This document shows, piece after piece, positions 1 to 13,894 of a DNA stretch of 13,894 nucleotides. Both the position numbers and the translations under genes were made by a program. Position 1 is the stretch's first letter. The number at the start of each line of letters is the position of its first letter. A model generated the notes under the pieces. It saw nothing but the letters and a program-made list of their open reading frames with translations. It was not told where the DNA came from and did no database searches. Source of the DNA: a virus (Duplodnaviria; Heunggongvirae; Uroviricota; Caudoviricetes); the IMG/VR virus record IMGVR_UViG_2645728091_000007, positions 1 to 13,894 of that record. One strand, written 5' to 3'.

Positions 1-1
1 C

Positions 2-1063
2 GGGGAGGAAGGAAACTACCGGATGGAAAGAGTCCCCCTAAAGCAGACTGACAGACATCACAAATCCCCGGGTGGGGATTTGTGTATAAGAGACAGACCA
101 GTAGCAGGGGAAAACATCCGCGATAATGCGCCAAATTTCCATAAATGGCTTGAACATGCTGCAAGAAAAGACCCGCGTAAGATGATGCGTATATGTGCCG
201 CGTTATACATGATTATGGCGAACCGCTACGACTGGCAGATGTTCATTGAGGCCACCGGAGACGGGGGAAGCGGTAAGAGTACATTTACCCATATTGCCAC
301 CCTGCTTGCTGGCAAACAGAACACCGTAAGCGCGGAGATGACATCACTCGATGATGCAGGAGGGCGCGCGCAGGTTGTCGGGAGTCGTCTTATCGTCCTT
401 GCCGATCAGCCGAAATATACGGGGGAAGGCACGGGCATCAAGAAAATCACGGGAGGCGATCCCGTTGAAATTAACCCGAAATATGAGAAGCGATTCACGA
501 CGATAATAAGGGCGGTGGTACTGGCAACCAATAACGACCCGATGATCTTTACCGAACGGGCCGGAGGTGTGTCACGCCGTCGGGTGATTTTCCGGTTCGA
601 CAACATTGTAAGGGAGGACGAAAAAGACAAGGAATTACCGGAAAAGATAGCGGCAGAAATCCCCGTAATTATCCGCCGCTTGCTGGCTAATTTTGCTGAC
701 CCTGAAAAGGCACGGGCTTTATTACTGGAACAGCGTGACGGTGATGAAGCTCTGGCAATAAAGCAGCAAACGGATCCGGTTGTTGAGCTTTGCGCGGCGC
801 TGGAGTTTCTGGAGGAAGCTCGTGGGCTAATGATGGGCGGTGGTGGTGACACCGTGAAGTACACGACCAGAAACAGCCTTTACCGTGTCTATATGGCCTT
901 CATGGCATACACAGGAAAGGGGAAATGTTTGAGCGTGAATGAGTTCGGAAAGGCTATGAGGTCAGCGGCGAAAGTTTACGGATATGAATATATTACGCGA
1001 AAAGTTAAGGGAGTCACGCAGACCAACGCAACGACTACTGATGATTGCGATGCGTTTTTATAA
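2..1063 (+). CDS. Primase-helicase, P4 alpha/D5 family, C-terminal portion (5'-partial; frame is open from the window edge)
   Basis: Walker A motif GDGGSGKST about 80 codons into the ORF, preceded by a D5_N-like segment (NFHKWLEHAARKDPRKMMRICAALYMI) and followed by a C-terminal region typical of P4-family primases. First in-frame ATG is at 23, but the frame is open from position 2. N-terminal primase domain is absent from the window. Confidence 0.7.
   Translation, partial: GEEGNYRMERVPLKQTDRHHKSPGGDLCIRDRPVAGENIRDNAPNFHKWLEHAARKDPRKMMRICAALYMIMANRYDWQMFIEATGDGGSGKSTFTHIATLLAGKQNTVSAEMTSLDDAGGRAQVVGSRLIVLADQPKYTGEGTGIKKITGGDPVEINPKYEKRFTTIIRAVVLATNNDPMIFTERAGGVSRRRVIFRFDNIVREDEKDKELPEKIAAEIPVIIRRLLANFADPEKARALLLEQRDGDEALAIKQQTDPVVELCAALEFLEEARGLMMGGGGDTVKYTTRNSLYRVYMAFMAYTGKGKCLSVNEFGKAMRSAAKVYGYEYITRKVKGVTQTNATTTDDCDAFL
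78..96 (-). mobile_element. Tn5/IS50-like 19-bp end sequence (element body would lie to the left)
   Basis: Reverse complement of 78-96 is CTGTCTCTTATACACAAAT. The first 16 nt equal the Tn5 mosaic end exactly; 17/19 match both the outside end (CTGACTCTTATACACAAGT) and the mosaic end. A 9-bp-stem palindrome CAAATCCCC-gggt-GGGGATTTG containing a SmaI site lies at 61-82. Confidence 0.3.
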
Positions 1064-1077
1064 AAAATGGCAATGGT

Positions 1078-1305
1078 TATCTACCTTGTCTACCTGACTG
1101 AAAGAAAATACTTTTATTTCAATGTATTAATGCAGGTAGATAACTATTTTTCACTGTCTACCTGTTATCTACCTTATCTACCCATTTTTGTAGACAGGTA
1201 AGGAGACGGGTAGAGATGAGGTAGACAGCTATTTGGGGCTGTCTACCTCCCTGAAACCCGCGCCATTACTGGCCTGATAACTAATCAGGTAGACAAGGTA
1301 GACAA
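1078..1305. repeat. Iteron cluster, about 11 copies of GGTAGACA / TGTCTACC in both orientations (putative ori or crr)
   Basis: Copies at about 1078, 1087, 1135, 1155, 1167, 1175, 1190, 1209, 1220, 1240, 1288 and 1297, including a direct tandem GGTAGACAAGGTAGACAAGG at 1288-1307. AT-rich context immediately downstream of the primase gene. Confidence 0.6.
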
Positions 1306-1352
1306 GGTGGTGGTGCACAAAAAACTTTTTAAACGAGGGGGTAAAAATAAAA

Positions 1353-1610
1353 ATGCACACATCAGGAAAACTGAACAAACATATAAAGCCACATTACCGC
1401 GCCCTTGATATGGCTGAACACTGGCTAAGGGTGGCGATTAAGGCAATAGACCGCAACGCCGGGGAAGGATACGCGAAAGCACATCCCGAACTGATAAGCG
1501 CATTCATGACAACGGCGGCTGCAAACTTTGCCACGCTGACCGAACGGGAGATTGCTGAAGCGGAGGAAGTGACAACAATCAATATTAAGTCCGGAGAGCT
1601 GGCAGCATGA
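1353..1610 (+). CDS. Hypothetical small protein (85 aa)
   Basis: ORF with a GAGGGGG Shine-Dalgarno about 12 nt upstream; its stop overlaps the SSB start (ATGA at 1607-1610), suggesting translational coupling. No family recognised. Confidence 0.5.
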   Translation: MHTSGKLNKHIKPHYRALDMAEHWLRVAIKAIDRNAGEGYAKAHPELISAFMTTAAANFATLTEREIAEAEEVTTINIKSGELAA

Positions 1611-2056
1611 CGGCGCAAATATCAGTTTACGGGCGGTTGGTGGACGACCCGCAGACAAAACAGACCAGCAAGGGCACCCCCATGACGCTGGCGCGTATGG
1701 CGGTATCACTGCCCTGCAGTCAGTCGGATGACGGTCTGGCGACGTTGTGGTTATCTGTCCTGGCGTTTGGCAGACAAGCCGACGCGCTGGCAAAGCATCA
1801 CAAAGGCGAACTCCTGAGCGTGGCGGGTAACATGCAGATGAGCCAGTGGACTGGACAGAACGGCGAAACGCGGCAGGGCTGGCAGGTTATCGCAGACAGC
1901 GTAATCAGTGCGCGATCGGTGCGACCGGGCGGCAAAAAAGGCCAACAGGGGCAGGCTACTGACGCACTGAACAGAGCAAAACAACAGGCAGATCAGCAAG
2001 GAAGCCAGCCACCAGAGGGAGATAATGAGCAATGGGGAGATGATATCCCGTTTTAA
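1607..2056 (+). CDS. ssb: Single-stranded DNA-binding protein
   Basis: N-terminal OB-fold-like region (ISVYGRLVDDPQ...), Q/G-rich linker, and C-terminal WGDDIPF matching the acidic tail of E. coli SSB (DFDDDIPF). Confidence 0.8.
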   Translation: MTAQISVYGRLVDDPQTKQTSKGTPMTLARMAVSLPCSQSDDGLATLWLSVLAFGRQADALAKHHKGELLSVAGNMQMSQWTGQNGETRQGWQVIADSVISARSVRPGGKKGQQGQATDALNRAKQQADQQGSQPPEGDNEQWGDDIPF

Positions 2057-2074
2057 ATATTGCCAATAAAAAAA

Positions 2075-2098
2075 GCCGGAAAAAATAAATTTTCCGGC
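2075..2098 (-). terminator. Stem-loop with a 9-bp perfect stem (GCCGGAAAA / TTTTCCGGC); looks like an intrinsic terminator on the minus strand
   Basis: On the minus strand the hairpin is followed by a run of 7 T (complement of the A-run at 2068-2074). On the plus strand no U-run follows. Sits in the SSB-capsid intergenic region. Confidence 0.3.
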
Positions 2099-2272
2099 AT
2101 GCTACATAAATCCCGACCAAAGGGAGTGAAGATATTAACACTAATTGTCCGCACTGAAGTTGTCACCCCAAAACTTTATACAACATTGCACTCGGTTGCA
2201 TGTGTTCGCATGACAAATATCGGTGATAGCATATATCCACAATTATTTTTAATGAATGCAAAGAGGATGCGT

Positions 2273-3313
2273 ATGGTTGATTTATATTCGCCTACTCAGC
2301 TTGTACAGGTAGTTAATGCTGTAGATGTACAAAAACAACTAAATGCGTTGTTTACCAGTTTGTTTTTTACTCGCTCGGTAATGTTTGAATCGCGCGATAT
2401 TATTCTTGATACAATCGACGATCCAAATATCCCAATTGCAGCGTTTTGTTCTCCTATGGTGGGTAGTAAAGTTTCACGTGACGAAGGGTACGAATCAAAA
2501 ACAATTCGTCCAGGCTATATGAAGCCGAAAAGCAGCATTGATCCAAATAAGTTAGCTGTGCGCCCTGCTGGTGTATCACCTGAGCAATACAATTCTTTTG
2601 GGGCGCGTAATATTAAAGTTAAACAGGCGATTGTAAATCAGGCTAAAGCTATTCGTGCACGTATTGAATGGCTTGCCGTTCAGGCAATCACAACGGGGAA
2701 AAATATCATTGAGGGCGATGGTATTGAACGTTATGAGCTGGACTGGAATATTAAACCACAAAATATCATCACTCAGTCTGGCGGTGCTGAGTGGTCAGGT
2801 AAGGATAAAGAAACTTTTGATCCAAATGATGATATTGATAGCTACGCAGAATTTAGTGAGGGCGTCACTAATATCATCATTATGGGCGGTAATGTATGGA
2901 AGAAATACCGTTCATTCAGAGCGATAAAAGAGGCTCTGGATACCCGTCGTGGTTCTAATTCCGAACTGGAAACGGCCCTTAAAGACCTTGGTGATTCGGT
3001 GAGTTTTAAAGGGTATATGGGCGATGTTGCGATTGTTGTATATAGCGGGCGTTATACCGACGAGGACGGAACTGAAAAACATTTCCTTGATCCTGATTTG
3101 ATGGTGCTTGGCAATACGGCTCTTCAGGGGATTGTCGCCTATGGAGGTATTCAGGATCCGGAGCTAATCCGAATGGGGCTGACTAAAGCCGAACTTGCAC
3201 CGAAAAACTATATTGTGCCTGGTGATCCGGCTATTGAATATGTGCAGACACATTCAGCACCACAGCCAATACCGGCCCGCATCAATCGTTTTGTTACCGT
3301 TCGCATTGGCTAA
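2273..3313 (+). CDS. Major capsid protein, lambda gpE family (divergent homolog, 346 aa)
   Basis: Similarity to lambda gpE along the full length (LFF near the N-terminus; QSGG.EWS..DK.T.DP.DDI; LDTRRGSNSELETA; GDVAIVVYSG). Start at 2273 chosen from the AAGAGG Shine-Dalgarno at 2261-2266 and alignment to gpE MSMY; the ORF track's upstream extension to 2060 has no homology. Confidence 0.8.
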   Translation: MVDLYSPTQLVQVVNAVDVQKQLNALFTSLFFTRSVMFESRDIILDTIDDPNIPIAAFCSPMVGSKVSRDEGYESKTIRPGYMKPKSSIDPNKLAVRPAGVSPEQYNSFGARNIKVKQAIVNQAKAIRARIEWLAVQAITTGKNIIEGDGIERYELDWNIKPQNIITQSGGAEWSGKDKETFDPNDDIDSYAEFSEGVTNIIIMGGNVWKKYRSFRAIKEALDTRRGSNSELETALKDLGDSVSFKGYMGDVAIVVYSGRYTDEDGTEKHFLDPDLMVLGNTALQGIVAYGGIQDPELIRMGLTKAELAPKNYIVPGDPAIEYVQTHSAPQPIPARINRFVTVRIG

Positions 3314-3322
3314 GGGGGAGCA

Positions 3323-3664
3323 ATGGCTACTCATTACACTGAACTCATGGCTGGCACTGAAGCACTGGTGACTACGCTGGGGATATTTTCAGCTAATAAA
3401 GGGGTAATTCCTGCATTTACGCCACTGATGCAGGAAGATGCAACAGGTGCACTGGTGGTATGGGATGGTTCGAGCGTAGGTAAAGCGGTTTATGTTTCCG
3501 CTGTACAAATCGACACCGCGAAAAAAACACAGGCTCAGGTCTATAAGACAGGTGTCTTAAATGTTGATGCTCTGAACTGGCCTGAGTCTGTTAAAGAACT
3601 GTCAGTAAAGGTTGCAGCGTTTGTTGGCTCAGGTATTTCTGTTCAGCCGCTGGCTCGTGTGTAA
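3323..3664 (+). CDS. Head decoration protein, lambda gpD family (113 aa)
   Basis: Alignable to lambda gpD (THY; TPLM; VVWDGS vs VAWDGT; YKTG vs YKSG; WPE; AF.G..IS). AAGGGGGAG Shine-Dalgarno directly after the capsid gene stop. Confidence 0.75.
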   Translation: MATHYTELMAGTEALVTTLGIFSANKGVIPAFTPLMQEDATGALVVWDGSSVGKAVYVSAVQIDTAKKTQAQVYKTGVLNVDALNWPESVKELSVKVAAFVGSGISVQPLARV

Positions 3665-3675
3665 AGGGGGATACA

Positions 3676-4059
3676 ATGCAGAATGATTACAATGACCTTA
3701 AGCCAATTGCCGAAATGATGTACCCGAATCCAGCTGTAGAGGAATTAAAAGCTATCGCTGACAAAATGTGTTTAAGCGAGCGCCTTGTTGATATGAATCA
3801 GGTGATGGAAATTACAACCCTGAGTCGTCGTACACTGCTAAACCTTGAGGCTAGTGGAGAGTTCCCGGAGCGTGTGCAGGTTACGGAAGGGCGTAAGGCC
3901 TGGTATTTAAGTGAAGTGATCGACTGGATAAATAATATTCCTCGCGCTTCTGAATATTGCCGCGTACCTGTCCCAAAAAAGCCAGATGCGGCGCTATGCC
4001 TCAAGATTGAGCGTGTACGCCGCAATGCACGGGATGGTCGCTATAAGCTGATTGGTTGA
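3676..4059 (+). CDS. AlpA-family (phage transcriptional regulator / excisionase-like) HTH protein with a ~40-aa N-terminal extension
   Basis: Segment MEITTLSRRTLLNLEASGEFPERVQVTEGRKAWYLSEVIDWINN resembles the AlpA/MerR-like HTH domain. Strong Shine-Dalgarno AAGGGGGAT before the ATG at 3676. Confidence 0.6.
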   Translation: MQNDYNDLKPIAEMMYPNPAVEELKAIADKMCLSERLVDMNQVMEITTLSRRTLLNLEASGEFPERVQVTEGRKAWYLSEVIDWINNIPRASEYCRVPVPKKPDAALCLKIERVRRNARDGRYKLIG

Positions 4060-4079
4060 TGAAATTAGGGCCCGCTCTG

Positions 4080-4149
4080 GCTGGCGGGTCCTTTCCGGTG
4101 ATCCAGAACGTTACGGGGCGGAAGGCGCGCGGGTTTTCGCTATTTATGA
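4080..4149 (+). other. Lambda-type cos site (cosQ/cosN-like) with a variant cohesive-end sequence
   Basis: GGCGGGTCCTTTCCGGTGATCC...GTTACG, then a 12-mer GGGCGGAAGGCG at 4116-4127 (lambda cosN is GGGCGGCGACCT), then CGCGGGTTTTCGCTATTTATGA matching the lambda left end as I recall it. Lies directly upstream of the Nu1-like gene. Confidence 0.6.
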
Positions 4150-4260
4150 GCATTTTAAGGGGACTGGTGGTGGTTTTGTTGTTCGCTGTATCTGTATGAA
4201 TAATAAGAGAAAAATACAATCAATACACCAACCTGAAACAGTAATTAAGTTGTGGTATCA

Positions 4261-4803
4261 ATGAAATTACACCTGATGAACAAAAAAAACATGGCAAAAA
4301 GTTGCCGTGTAAGCGCCACTGCGTTCGATAAGTGGGGAGTGATTCCCGTCGAGCGTAAGGGCCGTGAGGCGTTCTATGATGTTGCCAGTGTAATAGATAA
4401 TCGGGTTAACAATGCAATCAGCCAGATTACAAACGAAACGGGCGATATTGATGACGATGAACTTTTACGCGTCAGGATCAGATTACTGACAGCACAGGCA
4501 GAGGCGCAGGAGCTTAAAAACGAGCGCGAACGCGGCGACGTTATTGATACAGAGTTTTGTATGTATGTTCTTTCCAAACTGGCGAGTCAGATTTCATCTA
4601 TCATGGACAGCCTGCCGCTTACCATGCAAAGGCGCTTCCCACAGATGACTCCGGCTATGCTGGATGGACTTAAAAAGGAAGTGGCTAAAGCCTGTAATGC
4701 CAGTGCCGGCGTTGCTGACAACCTCCCACAGATACTGGCTGATTATCTGATGGAAAGTACAGGAAACGTACCGGATAAGTTGCAGCTGAATAAGGATAAG
4801 TAA
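4261..4803 (+). CDS. Terminase small subunit, lambda Nu1-like
   Basis: Similarity to lambda Nu1 in the middle and C-terminal parts (LTAQAEAQELKNERERGDVIDTEFCMYVLSKLASQISSIMDSLPLTMQRRFPQ vs lambda LTRAQADAQELKNARDSAEVVETAFCTFVLSRIAGEIASILDGLPLSVQRRFPE). N-terminal HTH region is divergent. Start is ambiguous: ATG at 4261, 4276 (best alignment to Nu1 MEVNKK) or GTG at 4252. Confidence 0.8.
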   Translation: MKLHLMNKKNMAKSCRVSATAFDKWGVIPVERKGREAFYDVASVIDNRVNNAISQITNETGDIDDDELLRVRIRLLTAQAEAQELKNERERGDVIDTEFCMYVLSKLASQISSIMDSLPLTMQRRFPQMTPAMLDGLKKEVAKACNASAGVADNLPQILADYLMESTGNVPDKLQLNKDK

Positions 4804-4814
4804 CGTAGTACGCT

Positions 4815-5090
4815 ATGACTGAATCCGAACTACTGAAAGTAATCTGCCATGCTGGTGGAGTCAGCCACCAGCATGACGAACAGACCACGCAGCCGGGCAG
4901 TGTCACCGCTGAAAATTACGCTCGTGTGGTTGCTGAGGTTATGTGGCGTGACGGTATAGAACTGAACGGACAGGATTGCTTAGTCATCCGCACCAAAGTG
5001 CTGGCTATACTGGCAGCTAGGCGGAGGCAGGGACAACGCCAGAACGTTGCATCGTACCAGTGGAAGAAGCCTGACAGACTGCGGCGATAA
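4815..5090 (+). CDS. Hypothetical protein (91 aa) in the position where a large terminase gene would be expected
   Basis: ORF only; no similarity to the lambda gpA N-terminus; weak RBS. Confidence 0.35.
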   Translation: MTESELLKVICHAGGVSHQHDEQTTQPGSVTAENYARVVAEVMWRDGIELNGQDCLVIRTKVLAILAARRRQGQRQNVASYQWKKPDRLRR

Positions 5091-5492
5091 CTCTTTGATT
5101 TTCTCGACGGCCCCAAAATGGGCCTTACCATAGCCAGCTAATAAATGAGCAAGCCTCAAAAGTGAGGTTTGTGGCCGTTTGGCCTATTCATATGCTAACT
5201 CGTTGATATTCCTGACGACGCAAATTTACGCCTTGTGGCTGGTAGTCGAATTGCAAATTTGCAACTCAACTATGAAACTACAGGTAGTTTGGGTAGTAAA
5301 AGCAACACACTGATTTTGGGGCTTCTTCGCGATACCTAATATTATGGTATCGGTGGAAGAGATATCGTTTCTCATAGGTTAGCACCGAGGGCGGAGTTCC
5401 GCCCTCATCGAAAAATTGCTTACGAGTCGTCAAAATAAATTAATCGACTGAGTATAATGATTAACTAATTGCTCGTGTTACTTCATTATACG

Positions 5493-6254
5493 TTATTTCC
5501 CATCTTTAAGGTTTAACCAAGTGTTAATTAAAAAAAGAGCCATTGAACCTGATAAATTTACTGCAAGTTCGGCATGCCTTGGGGATGGCTTAATTGATGA
5601 GCTGTTCGTTCCATGTGCATCACCGAGTTTATTACGAAGAGTACCTAACCCATTTACAACTGCAGAACAACCGCCGAGAATTTGTTTGAAGATATTTTCA
5701 GTATGTTGGTCGGCAGATAGGTTAAGTTCTTTTGAAAGAGTTTTATAAAGCTCTGACATTTCAATATTTTTATTATTATACTGAATGCCCATATCATCAA
5801 GAATGTGTTTGCAAACTGTTTCAAGAAGTGTTCTTGCGGAGGTTATCGCACCATCCGGATCTGTATGGCGCCGTTCAAGTGCTTTTATCCAAACGGCGTG
5901 GACTCCATCCTCGTTAAACTTTCTTAATACATCAGATATGTCTTCATCCGCTGGAGCTTTATTTTTCCCTTCTAGATAGTCCAGCATCGGCTGAAATGCC
6001 TTATAAATCAAATCTCTCCGGGGGGCATACTTTTCAGTCTTTTTTATAAATCCCCAAAATTCTTTTAGTGAGCGATTAGTTCTCACAAACTCTGGTAATA
6101 GCTGATGTAAAGGAGGATTTTGTAAGAAATATGTTCTTAGAAGCAAATAATCATTATTAGCTTCATCCTGGGCTCCTGTAGCTCTTGCAATTAGTATGTT
6201 TTGAAGCGCTACTGCGCGCTCTAGGTCATTTTGAAGGGTATCTATAATATTCAT
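5493..6254 (-). CDS. Abortive-infection-like protein with a C-terminal HEPN-type Rx6H motif (Abi_C-like)
   Basis: 253-aa ORF on the minus strand. C-terminal GTLRNKLGDAHG fits the HEPN Rx4-6H motif and my recollection of Abi_C-family proteins. AT-rich gene flanked by noncoding DNA, consistent with acquired cargo. Confidence 0.5.
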   Translation of the reverse strand: MNIIDTLQNDLERAVALQNILIARATGAQDEANNDYLLLRTYFLQNPPLHQLLPEFVRTNRSLKEFWGFIKKTEKYAPRRDLIYKAFQPMLDYLEGKNKAPADEDISDVLRKFNEDGVHAVWIKALERRHTDPDGAITSARTLLETVCKHILDDMGIQYNNKNIEMSELYKTLSKELNLSADQHTENIFKQILGGCSAVVNGLGTLRNKLGDAHGTNSSSIKPSPRHAELAVNLSGSMALFLINTWLNLKDGK

Positions 6255-6314
6255 AACAAATCTTTATTCACTTCATTTGTGGGTTGATAATTGAATGGTT
6301 TGTACATTGATTTC

Positions 6315-6337
6315 TGTGTATTGCAGTGTGTATTGCA
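6315..6337. repeat. Tandem direct repeat TGTGTATTGCA(G) x2 in the putative promoter region of the Abi-like gene
   Basis: TGTGTATTGCAG followed by TGTGTATTGCAA at 6315-6337, upstream of the minus-strand start at 6254. Confidence 0.3.
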
Positions 6338-6427
6338 ACATAGCCATTCAGGTAGAGATTATGCTCTATTTTTCCTCTTATATCATTCACATACTTACAC
6401 CATTGACTCATGTAACCCAAGCATGAG

Positions 6428-7204
6428 GTGAATCCGCAGATGACCCTGCGTCGCCTGCCGGATGAAGATCCGCAGAATCTGGCGGACCCGGCTTACCGCC
6501 GCCGTCGCATCATCCTGCAGAACATGCGTGACGAGGAGCTGGCCATTGCCCAGGTCGAAGAGATGCAGGCCGTTTCTGCCGTGCTTAAGGGCAAATACAC
6601 CATGACCGGTGAAGCCTTCGATCCGGTTGAGGTGGATATGGGCCGCAGTGCGGCGAATAACATCACGCAGTCCGGCGGCACGGAGTGGAGTAAGCGTGAT
6701 AAGTCCACGTATGACCCGACCGACGATATCGAAGCCTACGCGCTGAACGCCAGCGGTGTGGTGAATATCATCGTGTTTGATCCGAAAGGCTGGGCGCTGT
6801 TCCGTTCCTTCAAAGCCGTCAGGGAGAAGCTGGATACCCGTCGCGGCTCTCATTCCGAACTGGAGACAGCGGTAAAAGACCTGGGCAAAGCGGTGTCTTA
6901 TAAGGGAATGTATGGCGATGTGGCCATCGTCGTGTATTCCGGACAGTACGTGGAAAATGGTGTCAAAAAGAACTTCCTGCCGGACAACACGATGGTGCTG
7001 GGCAACACTCAGGCACGCGGTCTGCGCACCTATGGCTGCATTCAGGATGCGGACGCACAGCGCGAAGGCATTAACGCCTCTGCCCGTTACCCGAAAAACT
7101 GGGTGACCACCGGCGATCCGGCGCGTGAGTTCACCATGATTCAGTCAGCACCGCTGATGCTGCTGGCTGACCCTGATGCGTTCGTGTCCGTACAACTGGC
7201 GTAA
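6428..7204 (+). pseudogene. E: Major capsid protein gpE, 5'-truncated (C-terminal ~260 codons, lambda-like)
   Basis: Translation matches lambda gpE from about residue 82 (NPQMTLRRLPDEDPQNLADPAYRRRRI...) to the C-terminus (...FVSVQLA). In-frame upstream codons KHE are preserved but a TAA occurs at 6413-6415 and homology ends near 6410. The N-terminal ~80 codons are missing. Confidence 0.8.
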
Positions 7205-7206
7205 TC

Positions 7207-7224
7207 ATGGCCCTTCGGGGCCAT
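7207..7224 (+). other. Stem-loop ATGGCCC-TTCG-GGGCCAT after the E stop, followed by a T-rich tract
   Basis: Perfect 7-bp stem with a TTCG tetraloop; matches the E-FI intergenic hairpin of lambda as I recall it. Confidence 0.5.
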
Positions 7225-7245
7225 TTTCTCTCTGTGGAGGAGTCC

Positions 7246-7641
7246 ATGACGAAAGATGAACTGATTGCCCGTCTTCAGGTGCTGGGTGAGCAACTGAACC
7301 GTGATGTCAGCCTGACGGGGACGAAAGAAGAACTGGCGCTCCGTGTGGCAGAGCTGGAAGAGGAGCTTGATGACACGGATGACGCTGCCGGTCAGGACAC
7401 GTCTGTCAGCCCGGAAAATGCGCTGACCGGGCATGAAAATGAGGTGGTGTCAGCGCAGCCGGGTACCGTGACTGATACGGCTGATCTGGTCACGGTTGTG
7501 GCACTGGTGACGCTGCATACTGATGCACTTCACGCCACGCGGGATGAGGCTGTGGCATTTGTGCTGCCGGGAACGGCGTTCCGTGTTTCTGCCAGTGTGG
7601 CAGCCGAAATGACAGAACATGGCCTGGCCAGAATGCAATAA
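7246..7641 (+). CDS. FI: DNA packaging / head assembly protein FI
   Basis: MTKDELIARLQ...GLARMQ matches lambda gpFI. GGAGGA Shine-Dalgarno at 7236-7241. The ORF-track start at 7207 is an upstream in-frame extension. Confidence 0.85.
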   Translation: MTKDELIARLQVLGEQLNRDVSLTGTKEELALRVAELEEELDDTDDAAGQDTSVSPENALTGHENEVVSAQPGTVTDTADLVTVVALVTLHTDALHATRDEAVAFVLPGTAFRVSASVAAEMTEHGLARMQ

Positions 7642-7652
7642 CGGGAGGCGCT

Positions 7653-8006
7653 GTGGCTGATTTCGATAACCTGTTCGATGCTGCCATTGCCCGCGCCGAT
7701 GAAACGATACGCGGGTACATGGGAACGTCAGCCACCATGACATCCGGTGAGCAGTCCGGCGCAGTAATACGTGGTGTTTTTGATGACCCTGAAAATATCA
7801 GCTATGCCGGACAGGGCGTGCGTGTTGAAGGCTCCAGCCCGTCCCTGTTTGTCCGGACTGATGATGTGCGGCAGCTGCGGCGCGGCGACACGCTGACCAT
7901 CGGTGAGGAAAACTTCTGGATAGACCGGATTTCACCGGATGATGGCGGAAGCTGTCATCTCTGGCTTGGGCGTGGCGTACCGCCTGCCGTTAACCGTCGC
8001 CGCTGA
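7653..8006 (+). CDS. FII: Head-tail joining protein FII
   Basis: GTG start with GGGAGG Shine-Dalgarno; MADFDNLFDAAIARADETIRGYMG... matches lambda gpFII (117 aa). Confidence 0.9.
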   Translation: MADFDNLFDAAIARADETIRGYMGTSATMTSGEQSGAVIRGVFDDPENISYAGQGVRVEGSSPSLFVRTDDVRQLRRGDTLTIGEENFWIDRISPDDGGSCHLWLGRGVPPAVNRRR

Positions 8007-8017
8007 AAGGGGGATGT

Positions 8018-8596
8018 ATGGCCATAAAAGGTCTTGAGCAGGCCGTTGAAAACCTCAGCCGTATCAGCAAAACGGCAGTGCCCGGTGCCGCCGCAATGGC
8101 CATTAACCGCGTGGCCACAACCGCAATAAAGCAGTCGGCGTCACAGGTTGCCCGTGAGACAAAGGTACGCCGGAAACTGGTAAAGGAAAGGGCCAGGCTG
8201 AAAAGGGCCACGGTCAAAAATCCGCAGGCCAGAATCAAGGTTAACCGGGGGGATTTGCCCGTAATCAAGCTGGGGAATGCGCGGGTTGTCCTGTCCCGCC
8301 GCAGGCGTCGTAAAAAGGGGCAGCGTTCATCCCTGAAAGGTGGCGGCAGCGTGCTTGTGGTGGGAAACCGTCGTATTCCCGGCGCGTTTATTCAGCAACT
8401 GAAAAATGGCCGGTGGCATGTCATGCAGCGTGTGGCCGGGAAAAACCGTTACCCCATTGATGTGGTGAAAATCCCGATGGCGGTGCCGCTGACCACGGCG
8501 TTTAAACAGAATATTGAACAGATACGGCGTGAACGTTTGCCGAAAGAACTGGAATACGCCCTGAAACAACAACTGAGGATTGCGATAAAGCGATGA
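8018..8596 (+). CDS. Z: Tail completion protein Z
   Basis: 192 aa, MAIKGLEQAVENLSRISKTAVPGAAAMAINRVA... matches lambda gpZ. AAGGGGGAT Shine-Dalgarno. Confidence 0.9.
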   Translation: MAIKGLEQAVENLSRISKTAVPGAAAMAINRVATTAIKQSASQVARETKVRRKLVKERARLKRATVKNPQARIKVNRGDLPVIKLGNARVVLSRRRRRKKGQRSSLKGGGSVLVVGNRRIPGAFIQQLKNGRWHVMQRVAGKNRYPIDVVKIPMAVPLTTAFKQNIEQIRRERLPKELEYALKQQLRIAIKR

Positions 8597-8988
8597 AACA
8601 TACTGAACTCCGTGCAGCCGTACTGGATGCACTGGAGAAGCATGACACCGGGGCGACGCTTTTTGATGGTCGCCCCGCTGTTTTTGATGAGGCGGATTTT
8701 CCGGCAGTTGCCGTTTATCTCACCGGCGCTGAATACACGGGCGAAGAGCTGGACAGCGATACCTGGCAGGCGGAGCTGCATATCGAAGTTTTCCTGCCTG
8801 CTCAGGTGCCGGATTCAGAGCTGGATTCGTGGATGGAGTCCCGGATTTATCCGGTGATGAGCGATATCCCGGCACTGTCAGATTTGATCACCAGTATGGT
8901 GGCCAGCGGCTATGACTACCGGCGCGACGATGATGCGGGCCTGTGGAGTTCAGCCGATCTGACTTATGTCATTACCTATGAAATGTGA
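8593..8988 (+). CDS. U: Tail terminator protein U
   Basis: 131 aa, [22 protein letters not shown]... matches lambda gpU. ATGA overlap with the Z stop. Confidence 0.9.
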
Positions 8989-8995
8989 GGACGCT

Positions 8996-9736
8996 ATGCC
9001 TGTACCAAATCCTGTAATGCCGGTGAAAGGTGCCGGGACCACCCTGTGGGTTTATAAGGGGAGCGGTGACCCTTATGCGAACCCGCTTTCAGACGTTGAC
9101 TGGTCGCGTCTGGCAAAAGTTAAAGACCTGACGCCCGGCGAACTGACCGCTGAGTCCTATGACGACAGCTATCTCGATGATAAAGATGCAGACTGGACTG
9201 CGACCGGGCAGGGGCAGAAATCTGCCGGAGATACCAGCTTCACGCTGGCGTGGATGCCCGGAGAGCAGGGGCAGCAGGCGCTGCTGGCGTGGTTTAATGA
9301 AGGTGATACCCGTGCCTATAAAATCCGCTTCCCGAACGGCACGGTCGATGTGTTCCGTGGCTGGGTCAGCAGTATCGGTAAGGCGGTGACGGCGAAGGAA
9401 GTGATCACCCGCACGGTGAAAGTCACCAATGTGGGACGTCCGTCGATGGCAGAAGATCGCAGCACGGTAACAGCGGCCACCGGCATGACGGTAACGCCAG
9501 CCAGTGCTTCCGTAGTGAAAGGGCAGAGCACTACGCTGACCGTGGCATTCCAGCCGGAGGGCGTAACCGACAAGAGCTTTCGTGCGGTGTCTGCGGATAA
9601 AACAAAAGCCACCGTGTCGGTCAGTGGTATGACCATCACCGTGAACGGCGTTGCTGCAGGCAAGGTCAACATTCCGGTTGTATCCGGTAATGGTGAGTTT
9701 GCTGCGGTTGCAGAAATTACCGTCACCGCCAGTTAA
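8996..9736 (+). CDS. V: Major tail protein V
   Basis: [36 protein letters not shown]... matches lambda gpV (246 aa), including the C-terminal Ig-like region. GAGGA Shine-Dalgarno; the ORF-track start at 8966 is an upstream extension overlapping U. Confidence 0.9.
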
Positions 9737-9751
9737 TCCGGAGAGTCAGCG

Positions 9752-10174
9752 ATGTTCCTGAAAACCGAATCATTTGAACATAACGGTGTGACCGTCACGC
9801 TTTCTGAACTGTCAGCCCTGCAGCGTATTGAGCATCTTGCCTGGTTGAAAGAGCAGGAAAAAAAGGCTGAATCCAGTGGCAACCTGCAGGTGTCTGTAGA
9901 GGATCTTATCAGAGGCGGGGCGTTTCTGGTGGCGATGTCTCTGTGGCATAACCATCCGCAGAAGACAAAGCTGCCGTCCATGAATGAAGCCATTACGCAG
10001 ATTGAGCAGGAAGTGCTTACCACCTGGCCCACGGAGGCAATTGCTCAGGCTGAAAACGTGGTGTTACGTCTGTCCGGAATGTCTGAGTTTGTGGTGAATA
10101 ATGCCCCTGAACAGGCAGAGGACGCCGGGCCTGCAGAGCCTGTTTCTGCGGGAAAGTGTTCGACGGTGAGCTGA
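9752..10174 (+). CDS. G: Tail assembly chaperone G
   Basis: 140 aa, MFLKTESFEHNGVTVTLSELSALQRIEHLA... ending ...PVSAGKCSTVS as in lambda gpG. Middle region differs from lambda at several residues. Confidence 0.9.
   Translation: MFLKTESFEHNGVTVTLSELSALQRIEHLAWLKEQEKKAESSGNLQVSVEDLIRGGAFLVAMSLWHNHPQKTKLPSMNEAITQIEQEVLTTWPTEAIAQAENVVLRLSGMSEFVVNNAPEQAEDAGPAEPVSAGKCSTVS
10150..10156 (+). promoter_or_regulatory. Programmed -1 ribosomal frameshift slippery heptamer G GGA AAG (G into T frame)
   Basis: Heptamer GGGAAAG lies in the G zero frame as G-GGA-AAG near the 3' end of G. The T frame (10156-10590) is -1 relative to G and has no start codon of its own with an RBS. Confidence 0.85.
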
Positions 10175-10590
10175 GTTTTGCCCTGAAACTGGCGCGCGAG
10201 ATGGGGCGACCCGACTGGCGCGCCATGCTTGCCGGGATGTCATCCACGGAGTATGCCGACTGGCACCGCTTTTACAGTACCCATTATTTTCATGATGTTC
10301 TGCTGGATATGCACTTTTCCGGGCTGACGTACACCGTGCTCAGCCTGTTTTTCAGCGATCCGGATATGCATCCGCTGGATTTCAGTCTGCTGAACCGGCG
10401 TGAGGCTGACGAAGAGCCTGAAGATGATGTGCTGATGCAGAAAGCGGCAGGGCTTGCCGGAGGTGTCCGCTTTGGCCCGGACGGGAATGAAGTTATCCCC
10501 GCTTCCCCGGATGTGGCGGACATGACGGAGGATGACGTAATGCTGATGACAGTATCAGAAGGGATCGCAGGAGGAGTCCGGTATGGCTGA
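10156..10590 (+). CDS. T: Tail assembly protein T segment, expressed as a G-T fusion by -1 frameshifting (fusion would span 9752-10590)
   Basis: Translation FDGELSFALKLAREMGRPDWRAMLAGMSSTEYADWHRFYSTHYFHD... matches lambda gpT; frame is -1 relative to G. Confidence 0.85.
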   Translation: MFDGELSFALKLAREMGRPDWRAMLAGMSSTEYADWHRFYSTHYFHDVLLDMHFSGLTYTVLSLFFSDPDMHPLDFSLLNRREADEEPEDDVLMQKAAGLAGGVRFGPDGNEVIPASPDVADMTEDDVMLMTVSEGIAGGVRYG

Positions 10591-13144
10591 ACCGGTAGGC
10601 GATCTGGTCGTTGATTTGAGTCTGGATGCGGCCAGATTTGACGAGCAGATGGCCAGAGTCAGGCGTCATTTTTCCGGTACGGAAAGTGATGCGAAAAAAA
10701 CAGCGGCAGTCGTTGAACAGTCAATGAACCGGCAGGCGCTGGCTGCACAGAAAGCGGGGATTTCCGTCGGGCAGTATAAAGCCGCCATGCGTATGCTGCC
10801 TGCACAGTTCACCGACGTGGCCACGCAGCTTGCAGGCGGGCAAAGTCCGTGGCTGATCCTGCTGCAACAGGGGGGTCAGGTTAAGGACTCCTTCGGCGGG
10901 ATGATCCCCATGTTCAGGGGGCTTGCCGGTGCGATCACCCTGCCGATGGTGGGGGCCACCTCGCTGGCGGTGGCGACCGGTGCGCTGGCGTATGCCTGGT
11001 ATCAGGGCAACTCAACCCTGTCCGATTTCAACAAAACGCTGGTCCTTTCCGGCAATCAGGCGGGACTGACGGCAGATCGTATGCTGGTCCTGTCCAGAGC
11101 CGGGCAGGCGGCAGGGCTGACGTTTAACCAGACCAGCGAGTCACTCAGCGCACTGGTTAAGGCGGGGGTAAGCGGTGAGGCTCAGATTGCGTCCATCAGC
11201 CAGAGTGTGGCGCGTTTCTCCTCTGCATCCGGCGTGGAGGTGGACAAGGTCGCTGAAGCCTTCGGGAAGCTGACCACAGACCCGACGTCGGGGCTGACGG
11301 CGATGGCACGCCAGTTCCATAACGTGACGGCGGAGCAGATTGCGTATGTTGCTCAGTTGCAGCGTTCCGGCGATGAAGCCGGGGCATTGCAGGCGGCGAA
11401 CGAGGCCGCAACGAAAGGGTTTGATGACCAGACCCGCCGCCTGAAAGAGAACATGGGCACGCTGGAGACCTGGGCAGACAGGACTGCGCGGGCATTCAAA
11501 TCCATGTGGGATGCGGTGCTGGATATTGGTCGTCCTGATACCGCGCAGGAGATGCTGATTAAGGCAGAGGCTGCGTTTAAGAAAGCAGACGACATCTGGA
11601 ATCTGCGCAAGGATGATTATTTTGTTAACGATGAAGCGCGGGCGCGTTACTGGGATGATCGTGAAAAGGCCCGTCTTGCGCTTGAAGCCGCCCGAAAGAA
11701 GGCTGAGCAGCAGACTCAACAGGACAAAAATGCGCAGCAGCAGAGCGATACCGAAGCGTCACGGCTGAAATATACCGAAGAGGCGCAGAAGGCTTACGAA
11801 CGGCTGCAGACGCCGCTGGAGAAATATACCGCCCGTCAGGAAGAACTGAACAAGGCACTGAAAGACGGGAAAATCCTGCAGGCGGATTACAACACGCTGA
11901 TGGCGGCGGCGAAAAAGGATTATGAAGCGACGCTGAAAAAGCCGAAACAGTCCGGCGTGAAGGTGTCTGCGGGCGATCGTCAGGAAGACAGTGCTCATGC
12001 TGCCCTGCTGACGCTTCAGGCAGAACTCCGGACGCTGGAGAAGCATGCCGGAGCAAATGAGAAAATCAGCCAGCAGCGCCGGGATTTGTGGAAGGCGGAG
12101 AGTCAGTTCGCGGTACTGGAGGAGGCGGCGCAACGTCGCCAGCTGTCTGCACAGGAGAAATCCCTGCTGGCGCATAAAGATGAGACGCTGGAGTACAAAC
12201 GCCAGCTGGCTGCACTTGGCGACAAGGTTACGTATCAGGAGCGCCTGAACGCGCTGGCGCAGCAGGCGGATAAATTCGCACAGCAGCAACGGGCAAAACG
12301 GGCCGCCATTGATGCGAAAAGCCGGGGGCTGACTGACCGGCAGGCAGAACGGGAAGCCACGGAACAGCGCCTGAAGGAACAGTATGGCGATAATCCGCTG
12401 GCGCTGAATAACGTCATGTCAGAGCAGAAAAAGACCTGGGCGGCTGAAGACCAGCTTCGCGGGAACTGGATGGCAGGCCTGAAGTCCGGCTGGAGTGAGT
12501 GGGAAGAGAGCGCCACGGACAGTATGTCGCAGGTAAAAAGTGCTGCCACGCAGACCTTTGATGGTATTGCACAGAATATGGCGGCGATGCTGACCGGCAG
12601 TGAGCAGAACTGGCGCAGCTTCACCCGTTCCGTGCTGTCCATGATGACAGAAATTCTGCTTAAGCAGGCAATGGTGGGGATTGTCGGGAGTATCGGCAGC
12701 GCCATTGGCGGGGCTGTTGGTGGCGGCGCATCCGCGTCAGGCGGTACAGCCATTCAGGCCGCTGCGGCGAAATTCCATTTTGCAACCGGAGGATTTACGG
12801 GAACCGGCGGCAAATATGAGCCAGCGGGGATTGTTCACCGTGGTGAGTTTGTCTTCACGAAGGAGGCAACCAGCCGGATTGGCGTGGGGAATCTTTACCG
12901 GCTGATGCGCGGCTATGCCACCGGCGGTTATGTCGGTACACCGGGCAGCATGGCAGACAGCCGGTCGCAGGCGTCCGGGACGTTTGAGCAGAATAACCAT
13001 GTGGTGATTAACAACGACGGCACGAACGGGCAGATAGGTCCGGCTGCTCTGAAGGCGGTGTATGACATGGCCCGCAAGGGTGCCCGTGATGAAATTCAGA
13101 CACAGATGCGTGATGGTGGCCTGTTCTCCGGAGGTGGACGATGA
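10583..13144 (+). CDS. H: Tail tape measure protein H
   Basis: 853 aa, MAEPVGDLVVDLSLDAARFDEQMARVRRHF... matches lambda gpH in length and sequence. AGGAGGA Shine-Dalgarno. Confidence 0.95.
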   Translation: MAEPVGDLVVDLSLDAARFDEQMARVRRHFSGTESDAKKTAAVVEQSMNRQALAAQKAGISVGQYKAAMRMLPAQFTDVATQLAGGQSPWLILLQQGGQVKDSFGGMIPMFRGLAGAITLPMVGATSLAVATGALAYAWYQGNSTLSDFNKTLVLSGNQAGLTADRMLVLSRAGQAAGLTFNQTSESLSALVKAGVSGEAQIASISQSVARFSSASGVEVDKVAEAFGKLTTDPTSGLTAMARQFHNVTAEQIAYVAQLQRSGDEAGALQAANEAATKGFDDQTRRLKENMGTLETWADRTARAFKSMWDAVLDIGRPDTAQEMLIKAEAAFKKADDIWNLRKDDYFVNDEARARYWDDREKARLALEAARKKAEQQTQQDKNAQQQSDTEASRLKYTEEAQKAYERLQTPLEKYTARQEELNKALKDGKILQADYNTLMAAAKKDYEATLKKPKQSGVKVSAGDRQEDSAHAALLTLQAELRTLEKHAGANEKISQQRRDLWKAESQFAVLEEAAQRRQLSAQEKSLLAHKDETLEYKRQLAALGDKVTYQERLNALAQQADKFAQQQRAKRAAIDAKSRGLTDRQAEREATEQRLKEQYGDNPLALNNVMSEQKKTWAAEDQLRGNWMAGLKSGWSEWEESATDSMSQVKSAATQTFDGIAQNMAAMLTGSEQNWRSFTRSVLSMMTEILLKQAMVGIVGSIGSAIGGAVGGGASASGGTAIQAAAAKFHFATGGFTGTGGKYEPAGIVHRGEFVFTKEATSRIGVGNLYRLMRGYATGGYVGTPGSMADSRSQASGTFEQNNHVVINNDGTNGQIGPAALKAVYDMARKGARDEIQTQMRDGGLFSGGGR

Positions 13145-13470
13145 AGACCTTCCGCTGGAAAGTGAAACCCGGTATGGATGTGGCTTCGGTCCCTTCTGTA
13201 AGAAAGGTGCGCTTTGGTGATGGCTATTCTCAGCGAGCGCCTGCCGGGCTGAATGCCAACCTGAAAACGTACAGCGTGACGCTTTCTGTCCCCCGTGAGG
13301 AGGCCACGGTACTGGAGTCGTTTCTGGAAGAGCACGGGGGCTGGAAAGCCTTTCTGTGGACGCCGCCTTATGAGTGGCGGCAGATAAAGGTGACCTGCGC
13401 AAAATGGTCGTCGCGGGTCAGTATGTTGCGTGTTGAGTTCAGCGCAGAGTTTGAACAGGTGGTGAACTGA
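13141..13470 (+). CDS. M: Tail tip assembly protein M
   Basis: 109 aa, MKTFRWKVKPGMDVASVPSVRKVRFGDGYSQRAPAGLNANLK... matches lambda gpM. ATGA overlap with the H stop. Confidence 0.9.
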   Translation: MKTFRWKVKPGMDVASVPSVRKVRFGDGYSQRAPAGLNANLKTYSVTLSVPREEATVLESFLEEHGGWKAFLWTPPYEWRQIKVTCAKWSSRVSMLRVEFSAEFEQVVN

Positions 13471-13894
13471 TGCAGGATATCCGGCAGGAAACACTGAATG
13501 AATGCACCCGTGCGGAGCAGTCTGCCAGCGTGGTGCTCTGGGAAATCGACCTGACAGAGGTCGGTGGAGAACGTTATTTTTTCTGTAATGAGCAGAACGA
13601 AAAAGGTGAGCCGGTCACCTGGCAGGGGCGACAGTATCAGCCGTATCCCATTCAGGGGAGCGGTTTTGAACTGAATGGCAAAGGCACCAGTACGCGCCCC
13701 ACGCTGACGGTTTCTAACCTGTACGGTATGGTCACCGGGATGGCGGAAGATCTGCAGAGTCTGGTCGGCGGAACGGTGGTCCGGCGTAAGGTTTACGCCC
13801 GTTTTCTGGATGCGGTGAACTTCGTCAACGGAAACAGTTACGCCGATCCGGAGCAGGAGGTGATCAGCCGCTGGCGCATTGAGCAGTGCAGCGA
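13470..13894 (+). CDS. L: Tail tip protein L (3'-partial; runs off the window end)
   Basis: ATG at 13470 overlaps the M stop by 1 nt. Translation MQDIRQETLNECTRAEQSASVVLWEIDLTEVGGERYFFCNEQNEKGEP... matches the lambda gpL N-terminus. Not in the ORF track because no stop is reached. Confidence 0.9.
   Translation, partial: MQDIRQETLNECTRAEQSASVVLWEIDLTEVGGERYFFCNEQNEKGEPVTWQGRQYQPYPIQGSGFELNGKGTSTRPTLTVSNLYGMVTGMAEDLQSLVGGTVVRRKVYARFLDAVNFVNGNSYADPEQEVISRWRIEQCS

Follow-up and report, generated by a model that had tools for sequence, protein, structure and literature searches.

Positions 4086 to 4262 of the window (the whole stretch of DNA analysed, 13,894 nucleotides) probably form the cos site of a helper-embedded satellite (HE-PICI), whose own TerS would redirect helper packaging to satellite DNA. 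The site belongs to a satellite without TerL that is embedded in gene E of its helper prophage, and not to a phage. By its sequence, the TerS/cosB pair is predicted to work like that of the N15/Monarch class, as a relative of this class whose specificity may be its own.

A satellite inside gene E of the helper prophage

The right part of the window (6410-13894) corresponded to lambda 6364-13853 at 97.4% identity; it began in the middle of gene E and covered E (in part), FI, FII, Z, U, V, G, T and H. The non-lambda part (1-6409) encoded the C-terminus of a primase, SSB, a gpE-family capsid protein (2273-3313) and a gpD-like decoration protein, followed by an AlpA-like HTH protein, the cos site with TerS, a 91-aa ORF and Abi_C on the minus strand. 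Two features define the end of the satellite and the surroundings of its TerS gene:

6414-6423, plus strand: attR core AACCCAAGCA, where the satellite ends on its right side within helper gene E
4815-5090, plus strand: 91-aa ORF (PHROG 1561), directly after TerS

A fully annotated E. coli copy, TUM1886, carried a module with 98.9% identity to window 1400-6500 as part of an element of ~11 kb that started with an integrase gene. Gene E, the major capsid gene, was split in two by this element, with an intact Nu1-A-W-B-C-D cluster upstream, and the 10-bp sequence AACCCAAGCA was common to the element's attL and attR. Its gene order was int, HTH, Icd-like, DUF4222, primase and SSB, followed by MCP, gpD-like, AlpA-like, TerS, a hypothetical ORF and Abi. 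The complete copy supplied int, the HTH regulator and the primase (int lies outside the window), and the satellite element contained no TerL, portal or protease gene. In the window, the attR lay in gene E and the satellite genes ran in the direction of the lambda late genes. Positions 1-6423 of the window make up the right part of an HE-PICI that sits in gene E of a lambda-like prophage, and the element is of the type E:Phage_cap_E:80 of Tommasini et al., a site with 201 instances (Tommasini, Mageeney & Williams 2023, PMC10111431). The reading of the window as a defective lambda with a deletion was rejected, as the att sites and the full element point to an insertion. The cos/TerS type of the window was carried by 73 of the 5,426 complete E. 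coli genomes.

cosQ, cosN and the distribution of the cosN allele

The features of the cos region are as follows, with bp numbers counted from the start of cosN:

4086-4092, plus strand: cosQ-equivalent GGGTCCT (signal for packaging termination) within the conserved block GGGTCCTTTCCGG
4116-4127, plus strand: cosN with the predicted 12-nt 5' cohesive end GGGCGGAAGGCG, in register with the annotated lambda cos site and with the same flanks
4128-4149, plus strand: spacer between cosN and cosB, CGCGGGTTTTCGCTATTTATGA (bp 13-34, I2 region), identical to lambda
4164-4185, plus strand: R3-equivalent (R3') CTGGTGGTGGTTTTGTTGTTCG (bp 49-70), the proposed primary TerS site, by position and conservation
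4186-4220, plus strand: AT-rich spacer between R3' and R2', by position in the place of the IHF site I1 of lambda and 21
4221-4240, minus strand: R2-equivalent (R2') CAATACACCAACCTGAAACA (bp 106-125), predicted by position and conservation
4247-4262, plus strand: weak, tentative R1-like candidate AAGTTGTGGTATCAAT, abutting the TerS start codon
4261-4803, plus strand: TerS of the Nu1 family, 180 aa, a predicted N15-class winged-HTH protein with the recognition helix SATAFDKW

The heptamer GGGTCCT, which we take to be cosQ, lay within the block GGGTCCTTTCCGG (from 4086), which was identical to lambda and in the same register. No difference in the block was seen when the window was compared with lambda/DE3, PhiR46_1, the helper of TUM1886, EcCICFT073 and the satellites of Enterobacter/Citrobacter; PMC4669245 describes the 7-bp cosQ as strongly conserved. 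Downstream of it, the nick sites of cosN would lie at 4115/4116 on the top strand and at 4127/4128 on the bottom strand. The lambda/DE3 cos site is annotated in the record as GGGCGGCGACCT, the sequence that the preliminary description had given for lambda. Compared with it, the window cosN was the same at bp 1-6 and 11 and differed at bp 7, 8, 9, 10 and 12, which bears out the earlier reading of a conserved 5' half and a changed 3' half. The flanks described as lambda-like, GTTACG (4110-4115) upstream and CGCGGGTTTTCGCTATTTATGA downstream, were identical to lambda, and the left half of cosN was kept together with the CG dinucleotides at the nick sites (ACG/GGGCGG....../CGCGGG, nick sites as slashes). 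There was no indel from cosN to bp 70, and the spacing from cosN to R3 was preserved; the similarity to lambda stopped at about 4157. The resemblance is not due to chance, since the cos region matched lambda-like phages in blastn with E values of 4e-13 to 4e-19, and the cos pattern (at most 3 mismatches) was found once in the window and in 0 of 200 shuffles. With 5 of the 12 positions mismatched, the predicted cohesive ends are unlikely to anneal stably with lambda ends, as had been anticipated. This poor pairing matters for hybrid molecules only.

The window cosN was also found in deposited lambda-like phages. Both PhiR46_1 and YDC107_1 contained the 12-mer GGGCGGAAGGCG and had a wholly lambda-type cosB (R3, I1, R2, R1), followed by Nu1. 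An exact scan of IMG/VR located the allele in 77 stretches, and the cosB behind it was of the lambda type (56), the 21 type (18, recognised by CATGTCGG repeats) or the satellite type (3), with one unclassified. Alleles were also tallied in the 38 IMG/VR satellites that had the cosB/TerS type of the window. The lambda allele GGGCGGCGACCT was present in 25 of the 38 satellites, GGGCGTCAGGCG in 8, GGGCGGAAGGCG in 3, and GGGCGGCAGACG and GGGCGGCTGACG in one each. Furthermore, the helper cosN was unlike the satellite cosN in three composites: in TUM1886 the right halves were CGACCT in the helper versus GTCAGGCG in the satellite, in the contig with L136 they were AAGGCG versus CGACCT at sites 12.3 kb apart on one strand, and the two sites also differed in one further contig (L232 and L147).

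The preliminary description had treated cosN as one component of a specificity switch. This part of it did not hold, as the same allele occurred with lambda-, 21- and satellite-type cosB, the majority of satellites with the same cosB/TerS carried the lambda cosN, and the window cosN was that of known phages. Variation at bp 7-12 is common among lambda-like phages and not under selection (Feiss et al. 2015, PMC4669245): compared with lambda, the cosN of N15 differs at bp 9 and 12 and that of Gifsy-1 at bp 8, 9 and 11, and lambda TerL cuts lambda and N15 cosN equally. Mutations of the right half have a minimal phenotype because TerS bound at R3 anchors TerL, and selection acts only on the left half of cosN, the flanking CG dinucleotides and cosQ (PMC4669245). 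The window allele retained exactly the positions reported as constrained and differed at positions reported as free. Searching the literature for the 12-mer GGGCGGAAGGCG or its complement retrieved unrelated papers only. Judged from these comparisons, the AAGGCG right half is best described as a freely assorting natural allele at positions tolerated by TerL, one that does not set packaging specificity. The window cosN is a more pronounced case of a polymorphism already known to be tolerated, without linkage to cosB/TerS; right-half variants of cosN are ordinary and should not be read as changes in specificity.

One could still suppose that the window represents a phage in which cosN, cosB and TerS, the entire packaging system, changed specificity together, with cosN taking part in the switch. 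All three components were indeed unlike lambda in the window, and 13 of 38 satellites had a non-lambda right half, compared with 5 of 119 sampled sites of the lambda type, an excess with a Fisher p value of 6e-6 uncorrected for clonal sampling. We regard this explanation as very improbable. It is already contradicted by the allele distribution, as AAGGCG also occurred with lambda- and 21-type cosB, this cosB/TerS mostly went with the lambda cosN, and helper and satellite cosN were unequal in the three composites. In addition, the element is an 11-kb satellite in gene E that lacks TerL, portal and protease, and variant right halves are cut equally well by lambda TerL (PMC4669245).

cosB and the satellite TerS

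The absence of lambda R heptamers between cosN and the TerS start, stated in the preliminary description, was reproduced: neither CGTTTCC nor GGAAACG was present with at most one mismatch on either strand of 4128-4275. A repeat search in the same interval gave best pairs of 11/16 with many equal pairs, in a T/G-rich background. Because repeats within this single sequence were no stronger than background, conservation across satellites was used instead.

Two satellite subtypes were compared over the non-coding bp 35-145. The R3' and R2' blocks contained 0/42 mismatches versus 21/69 outside them (p = 2e-5, with block limits chosen post hoc on an alignment already viewed). R3', which contains GGTGGTGGT at bp 51-59 followed by TTTTGTTGTT, was thus unchanged between subtypes that differed at 21 of 69 surrounding positions. 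Its core GGTGGTGGTnTTGTT was also kept in the Enterobacter/Citrobacter satellites, despite a TerS only 60% identical, and its position matched the annotated R3 of phage 21 (bp 50-65). In N15, R3 has been mapped at bp 48-59, GAGGTTGTTGTT (PMC4669245). R2', likewise unchanged between the subtypes, holds CACCAACC, the reverse complement of which is GGTTGGTG, and is in this way inverted relative to R3'. Its position matched the annotated R2 of phage 21 (bp 107-122, opposite orientation); conservation of R2' was not found in the Enterobacter/Citrobacter group. The IHF consensus WATCAANNNNTTR was absent from the spacer between R3' and R2' at up to one mismatch. One match with two mismatches was found at 4218-4230, overlapping R2', and lambda's own I1 is a poor match to the consensus. 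The R1-like candidate matched the reverse complement of 4219-4234 at 11/16 positions, no better than other pairs, and was diverged in satellite subtype B.

The protein encoded next to this cosB matched the Pfam family Phage_Nu1 (PF07471) with 87.4 bits (cut-off 30) over residues 35-151 only, and PHROG 57 with E = 3e-53; PGAP placed its start at the same position in TUM1886. Among deposited phages the best match was N15 gp1 (47% identity overall), with about 60% identity in the DNA-binding domain and 47% in the middle part. Identity to lambda Nu1 was 43% in the DNA-binding domain and 41% in the middle part, and with the Pfam match beginning at residue 35, the N-terminus was as divergent as had been described. 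Structural searches added little. With phmmer, TerS retrieved nothing at E <= 1 from the PDB sequences, among which the published RppC structure is presumably represented. An AlphaFold2 model based on a 21-sequence alignment was of low confidence (mean pLDDT 59.6); its order of strand, helix 1, helix 2, two-strand wing and helix 3 fits a winged HTH at that same low confidence. Foldseek searches of the PDB with this model gave nothing below E = 0.28, and the top hits were MerR-type regulators. Homology to the N15 gp1 domain (60%) supports a winged-HTH fold for TerS.

The predicted recognition helix and the R3 sequence varied together among the groups compared:

lambda: helix SIRTIQNW; R3 core CGTTTCC
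N15 and two IMG/VR phage groups with TerL (P1/P2): helix SVQAFDKW; R3 GTTGTTGTT
satellites of the window type: helix SATAFDKW; R3' GGTGGTGGT at bp 51-59, then TTTTGTTGTT
Enterobacter/Citrobacter satellites: helix GVTAFDKW; GGTGGTGGT core kept

The helices SATAFDKW and GVTAFDKW went with GGTGGTGGT, and SVQAFDKW with GTTGTTGTT. This held although the Enterobacter/Citrobacter HE-PICIs had other replication and cargo genes (AAA_25; FRG and DUF3892). In the P1/P2 groups, GTTGTTGTT occurred in forward orientation at bp ~51-60 and as an inverted copy at bp ~109-118, with ACAACAACC at the place of R2', and one of them had a third forward copy; this layout appears to resemble the tripartite Monarch cosB. 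In these phages, TerS was followed by an ORF of 642-643 aa.

The pair in the window falls outside the lambda specificity class, as it has no CGTTTCC core and the helix SATAFDKW instead of SIRTIQNW. It also stands apart from the N15/Monarch class, though related to it, with 6 of 8 helix positions in common and a GGT instead of a GTT repeat. The earlier proposal of a cosB/TerS pair distinct from lambda was therefore upheld by the missing lambda R sites, the other recognition helix and the conserved blocks at the R3 and R2 positions. The conserved blocks, the co-variation of helix and R3, and the purifying selection on TerS together provide good support, at the comparative level, for a co-evolved non-lambda pair. 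As far as sequence relationships indicate, it is a relative of the N15/Monarch class and not wholly new.

TerS is under purifying selection, with a dN/dS of 0.18-0.21 overall and 0.06 (dN 0.039, dS 0.687) in the DNA-binding domain, the most constrained part. This bears on the possibility that the cos/TerS fragment is a decaying relic of an N15/Monarch-like phage that has lost its packaging function. For such a relic speaks that no excised attP junction or packaged form was found in the satellite loci examined, and that the exact combination of the window, with positions 1-1400 joined to the remainder, was present in 0 of 5,426 complete E. coli genomes (best cos-site identity 96%). Attempts by Tommasini et al. 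to detect virions of their model composite were also unsuccessful (PMC10111431). Nevertheless, a relic seems improbable to us: besides its low dN/dS the TerS ORF was intact, and cosQ, the left half of cosN and R3' were conserved in satellites of E. coli, Shigella, Enterobacter and Citrobacter, where nearby non-coding DNA diverges.

Proposed use of the helper terminase and relation to other satellites

Under the reading of the site that we consider probable, induction of the helper would lead to excision and replication of the satellite. The satellite TerS would then bind its own cosB through the N15-class winged helix-turn-helix, at R3' (bp 49-70) and at the inverted R2' (bp 106-125), and the bound TerS would bring the helper TerL (gpA) into place at the conserved cosN. 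Nicking and termination by the helper enzyme would be made possible by the lambda-identical cosQ, the cosN left half, the CG dinucleotides at the nick sites and the spacer of bp 13-34, so that packaging would shift from helper DNA with its lambda-type R sites to satellite DNA or concatemers. That helper TerL could act here is suggested by the satellite's retention of cosQ, the cosN left half, the nick flanks and the exact spacing. In SaPI1 and SaPIbov1, a satellite TerS acts together with the large terminase of the helper, and packaging of the satellite DNA starts at a site specific to it; these islands are packaged by the headful (pac) mechanism, have an unrelated TerS family and live in Gram-positive hosts. 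The route described here may be the cos counterpart of this SaPI strategy and an alternative to the Rpp of EcCICFT073. Replacement of cosB with conservation of cosQ and cosN is known from E. coli PICIs (PMC6739421, PMC9026076).

We put the chances of direct gpA binding by TerS, as opposed to action in mixed oligomers with the helper Nu1, at about even. Direct use of helper gpA is uncertain because the C-terminal ~40 residues of TerS were only 29% identical to those of lambda Nu1 and of NohD of the resident helper. This value is as low as that between lambda and 21, which are TerL-specific; identity to N15 over the same residues was 31%. The extreme C-terminus keeps the motif [IL]P.[IL]L..Y[IL].[EQ]S.G, which is found in lambda and N15 and not in 21, and P156 and Y162 were invariant in 21 homologues. 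This shared motif speaks for direct binding of TerL.

In the mixed mode, known from Rpp proteins, TerS would form dimers or oligomers with the helper Nu1 and would not bind helper TerL itself; the satellite domain would read cosB, Nu1 would supply the gpA-binding C-terminus, and helper packaging would be poisoned. We consider this mode doubtful, and yet a serious alternative. The weak C-terminal match is in its favour when set against N15, which has a lambda-like TerL and 80% identity to lambda in this domain, and the central oligomerisation region of TerS was 41% identical to Nu1. TerS also occupies exactly the position of rppA, between cos and a conserved ORF of 91-93 aa, and Rpps act in this way and are thought to be derived from TerS (PMC6739421, PMC9026076). 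Against it, TerS is full length, with 180 aa and the Nu1 domain, unlike the Rpps (139-154 aa, no TerL-binding tail); it keeps the C-terminal motif with its two invariant residues, and had no detectable similarity to RppA (BLASTP E = 6.3). Assignment as an Rpp was rejected for TerS and for the 127-aa AlpA-like ORF, as neither had similarity to one.

Among satellites, EcCICFT073 resembles the window in its cos1, which agrees with lambda in cosQ, cosN and the bp 13-34 spacer and has a replaced cosB; the redirection of the helper terminase there follows the logic proposed here. The gene order also agrees (MCP, decoration protein, small ORF, cos, packaging gene, 91-93-aa ORF). The 91-aa ORF, which followed TerS in nearly all satellites examined, was 56% identical to the 93-aa ORF behind rppA (E = 9e-35). 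The two elements differ in that EcCICFT073 has the lambda cosN and is integrated in the chromosome, whereas the window satellite has another allele and lies inside gene E. RppA has 144 aa and lacks both the Nu1 Pfam domain and the C-terminal tail of the 180-aa window TerS, and it has been reported without repeated R sites (Fillol-Salom et al. 2018, 2019; Murialdo & Feiss 2022). The bp 55-63 of EcCICFT073, ACCACCACC, are the reverse complement of bp 51-59 of the window.

A second likeness is to Eco567.11capE of E. coli NRG857c (PMC10111431), which is also located in and co-oriented with gene E, has a 10-bp att core, the same PICI gene order and its own capsid-protein homologue, and has cos in the same place. 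This element has been reported without terS and its 258-bp cos is 90% identical to that of the helper, which makes its cosB lambda-type (PMC10111431); the window satellite, in contrast, encodes a Nu1-family TerS itself, and its cosB is not of the lambda type.

The phages compared share different parts of the system. Lambda has in common with the window cosQ, bp 1-6 and 11 of cosN, the CG flanks, bp 13-34 and the positions of R3 and R2, and its Nu1 is of the same family and length as the window TerS; in the window, however, I1 was not recognisable, CGTTTCC was absent and no gpA gene followed TerS, nor was a TerL gene found downstream of TerS in this satellite type. The likeness to N15 and Monarch lies in the DNA-binding domain (60%), the helix xxxAFDKW and an R3 with a G/T triplet repeat at bp ~50-60, and the arrangement of R3', spacer and inverted R2' resembles a tripartite Monarch-type cosB. 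N15 also has a cosN right half unlike lambda (GGGCGGCGTCCG). It differs from the window in R3 (GTTGTTGTT versus GGTGGTGGT), in the helix (SVQAFDKW versus SATAFDKW), in its lambda-like C-terminus and in having a single R3 and a remote rR2, where the window has R3' and an inverted R2'. N15 and Monarch are complete phages with TerL, and the window element is without it.

HE-PICIs, PICI cos sites with a replaced cosB, the principle of a satellite TerS, the free right half of cosN and the N15/Monarch specificity were already known. In the searchable literature, no description was found of an N15-related full-length TerS with a GGTGGTGGT-type R3 in helper-embedded satellites with lambda-type helpers. 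A broader proposal, that the locus is an orthogonal cos packaging system, possibly an intermediate toward Rpp, with adaptive variability of the cosN right half, is unlikely in our judgement. An intermediate is suggested by the locus and the downstream ORF, both shared with Rpp, and by an R3 core that reads as the Rpp-type ACCACCACC in inverse orientation. If the proposal were true, the variable right half would make satellite ends incompatible with helper ends, and hybrids from unexcised composites, running from the satellite cos to the helper cos ~46 kb downstream, could not cyclise.

Cos-type PICIs of E. coli are known to hijack the lambda-like terminase by means of Rpp, and HE-PICIs have been described without analysis of their packaging signals. 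The locus in the window would provide, in the same genomic place, another solution that joins a full-length TerS of the Nu1 family, with its N15-related DNA-binding domain, to a conserved cosB that matches it. For genetic work on specificity it supplies a defined pair of R3 and recognition helix, in which GGT stands against GTT in the repeats and T against Q in the helix, and it may serve as a natural test for the questions of Murialdo & Feiss as to the origin of Rpp, whether TerS bound at R3 must carry TerL, and how much of cosB is needed.

cosN alleles and the R3' core

Five cosN alleles were found among satellites that carry the cosB and TerS of the window (IMG/VR loci L124-L178; positions 14716-14727 of L001, the complete copy of the satellite in E. 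coli TUM1886). One of the five, GGGCGTCAGGCG, is also altered at bp 6, and the right halves AAGGCG, (T)CAGGCG, CAGACG and CTGACG are one-step neighbours. A non-lambda cosN was present in 13 of the 38 satellites with window-type cosB and TerS, compared to 5 of the 119 lambda-type sites, counts that are uncorrected for clonal sampling.

The core of R3', the proposed primary TerS binding site, is GGTGGTGGT (window 4166-4174; bp 51-59 from cosN). It is the reverse complement of a stretch in the cos of the satellite EcCICFT073, at which an Rpp binding site was proposed (Murialdo & Feiss):

L250 (EcCICFT073) 2613-2621, bp 55-63 of cos: ACCACCACC

This inverse match may be due to chance or may be a trace of common origin.

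The element, its capsid genes and its integration site

The following features were assigned in the window:

1-6423: HE-PICI element, with the attR core at 6414-6423 (full copy at L001 5883-17024)
2273-3664: a capsid protein of the gpE family (346 aa) and a gpD-like decoration protein (113 aa), both encoded by the satellite itself
4815-5090: 91-aa ORF (PHROG 1561), after TerS
5493-6254, minus strand: Abi_C (abortive infection) gene, in the cargo slot that separates the packaging module from attR

Both in the window and in the full copy, the element matches the published HE-PICI type E:Phage_cap_E:80. The helper E gene is interrupted by a satellite that brings its own gpE-family and gpD-like proteins, and these genes may be linked to capsid size redirection or interference. 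At L172, a satellite with the cos/TerS module of the window has its cos at ∼3402, and an intact E attB follows further downstream, at ∼7905; in at least one satellite the module therefore also occurs at another integration site.

The ORF following rppA in EcCICFT073 (L250 3374-3655) is 56% identical to the 91-aa ORF of the window, and the PHROG 1561 ORF accompanies the packaging gene of either kind, TerS or Rpp.

Putative replication origin, mosaicism and cargo

At least ten copies of the 9-mer AGGTAGACA/TGTCTACCT, in both orientations, occupy the intergenic region 3' of the primase gene (window 1072-1308). The satellite appears to have its origin of replication here, of the iteron type. Among 5,426 complete E. 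coli genomes, none has window 1-1400, which comprises the primase C-terminus and the adjoining region, joined to the rest of the element. In relatives, the replication modules differ from that of the window, which makes the satellite a mosaic. In the slot held by Abi_C in the window, the Enterobacter/Citrobacter relatives carry FRG and DUF3892 genes (L254 6559-7916), which suggests that this slot is a variable anti-phage cargo position.
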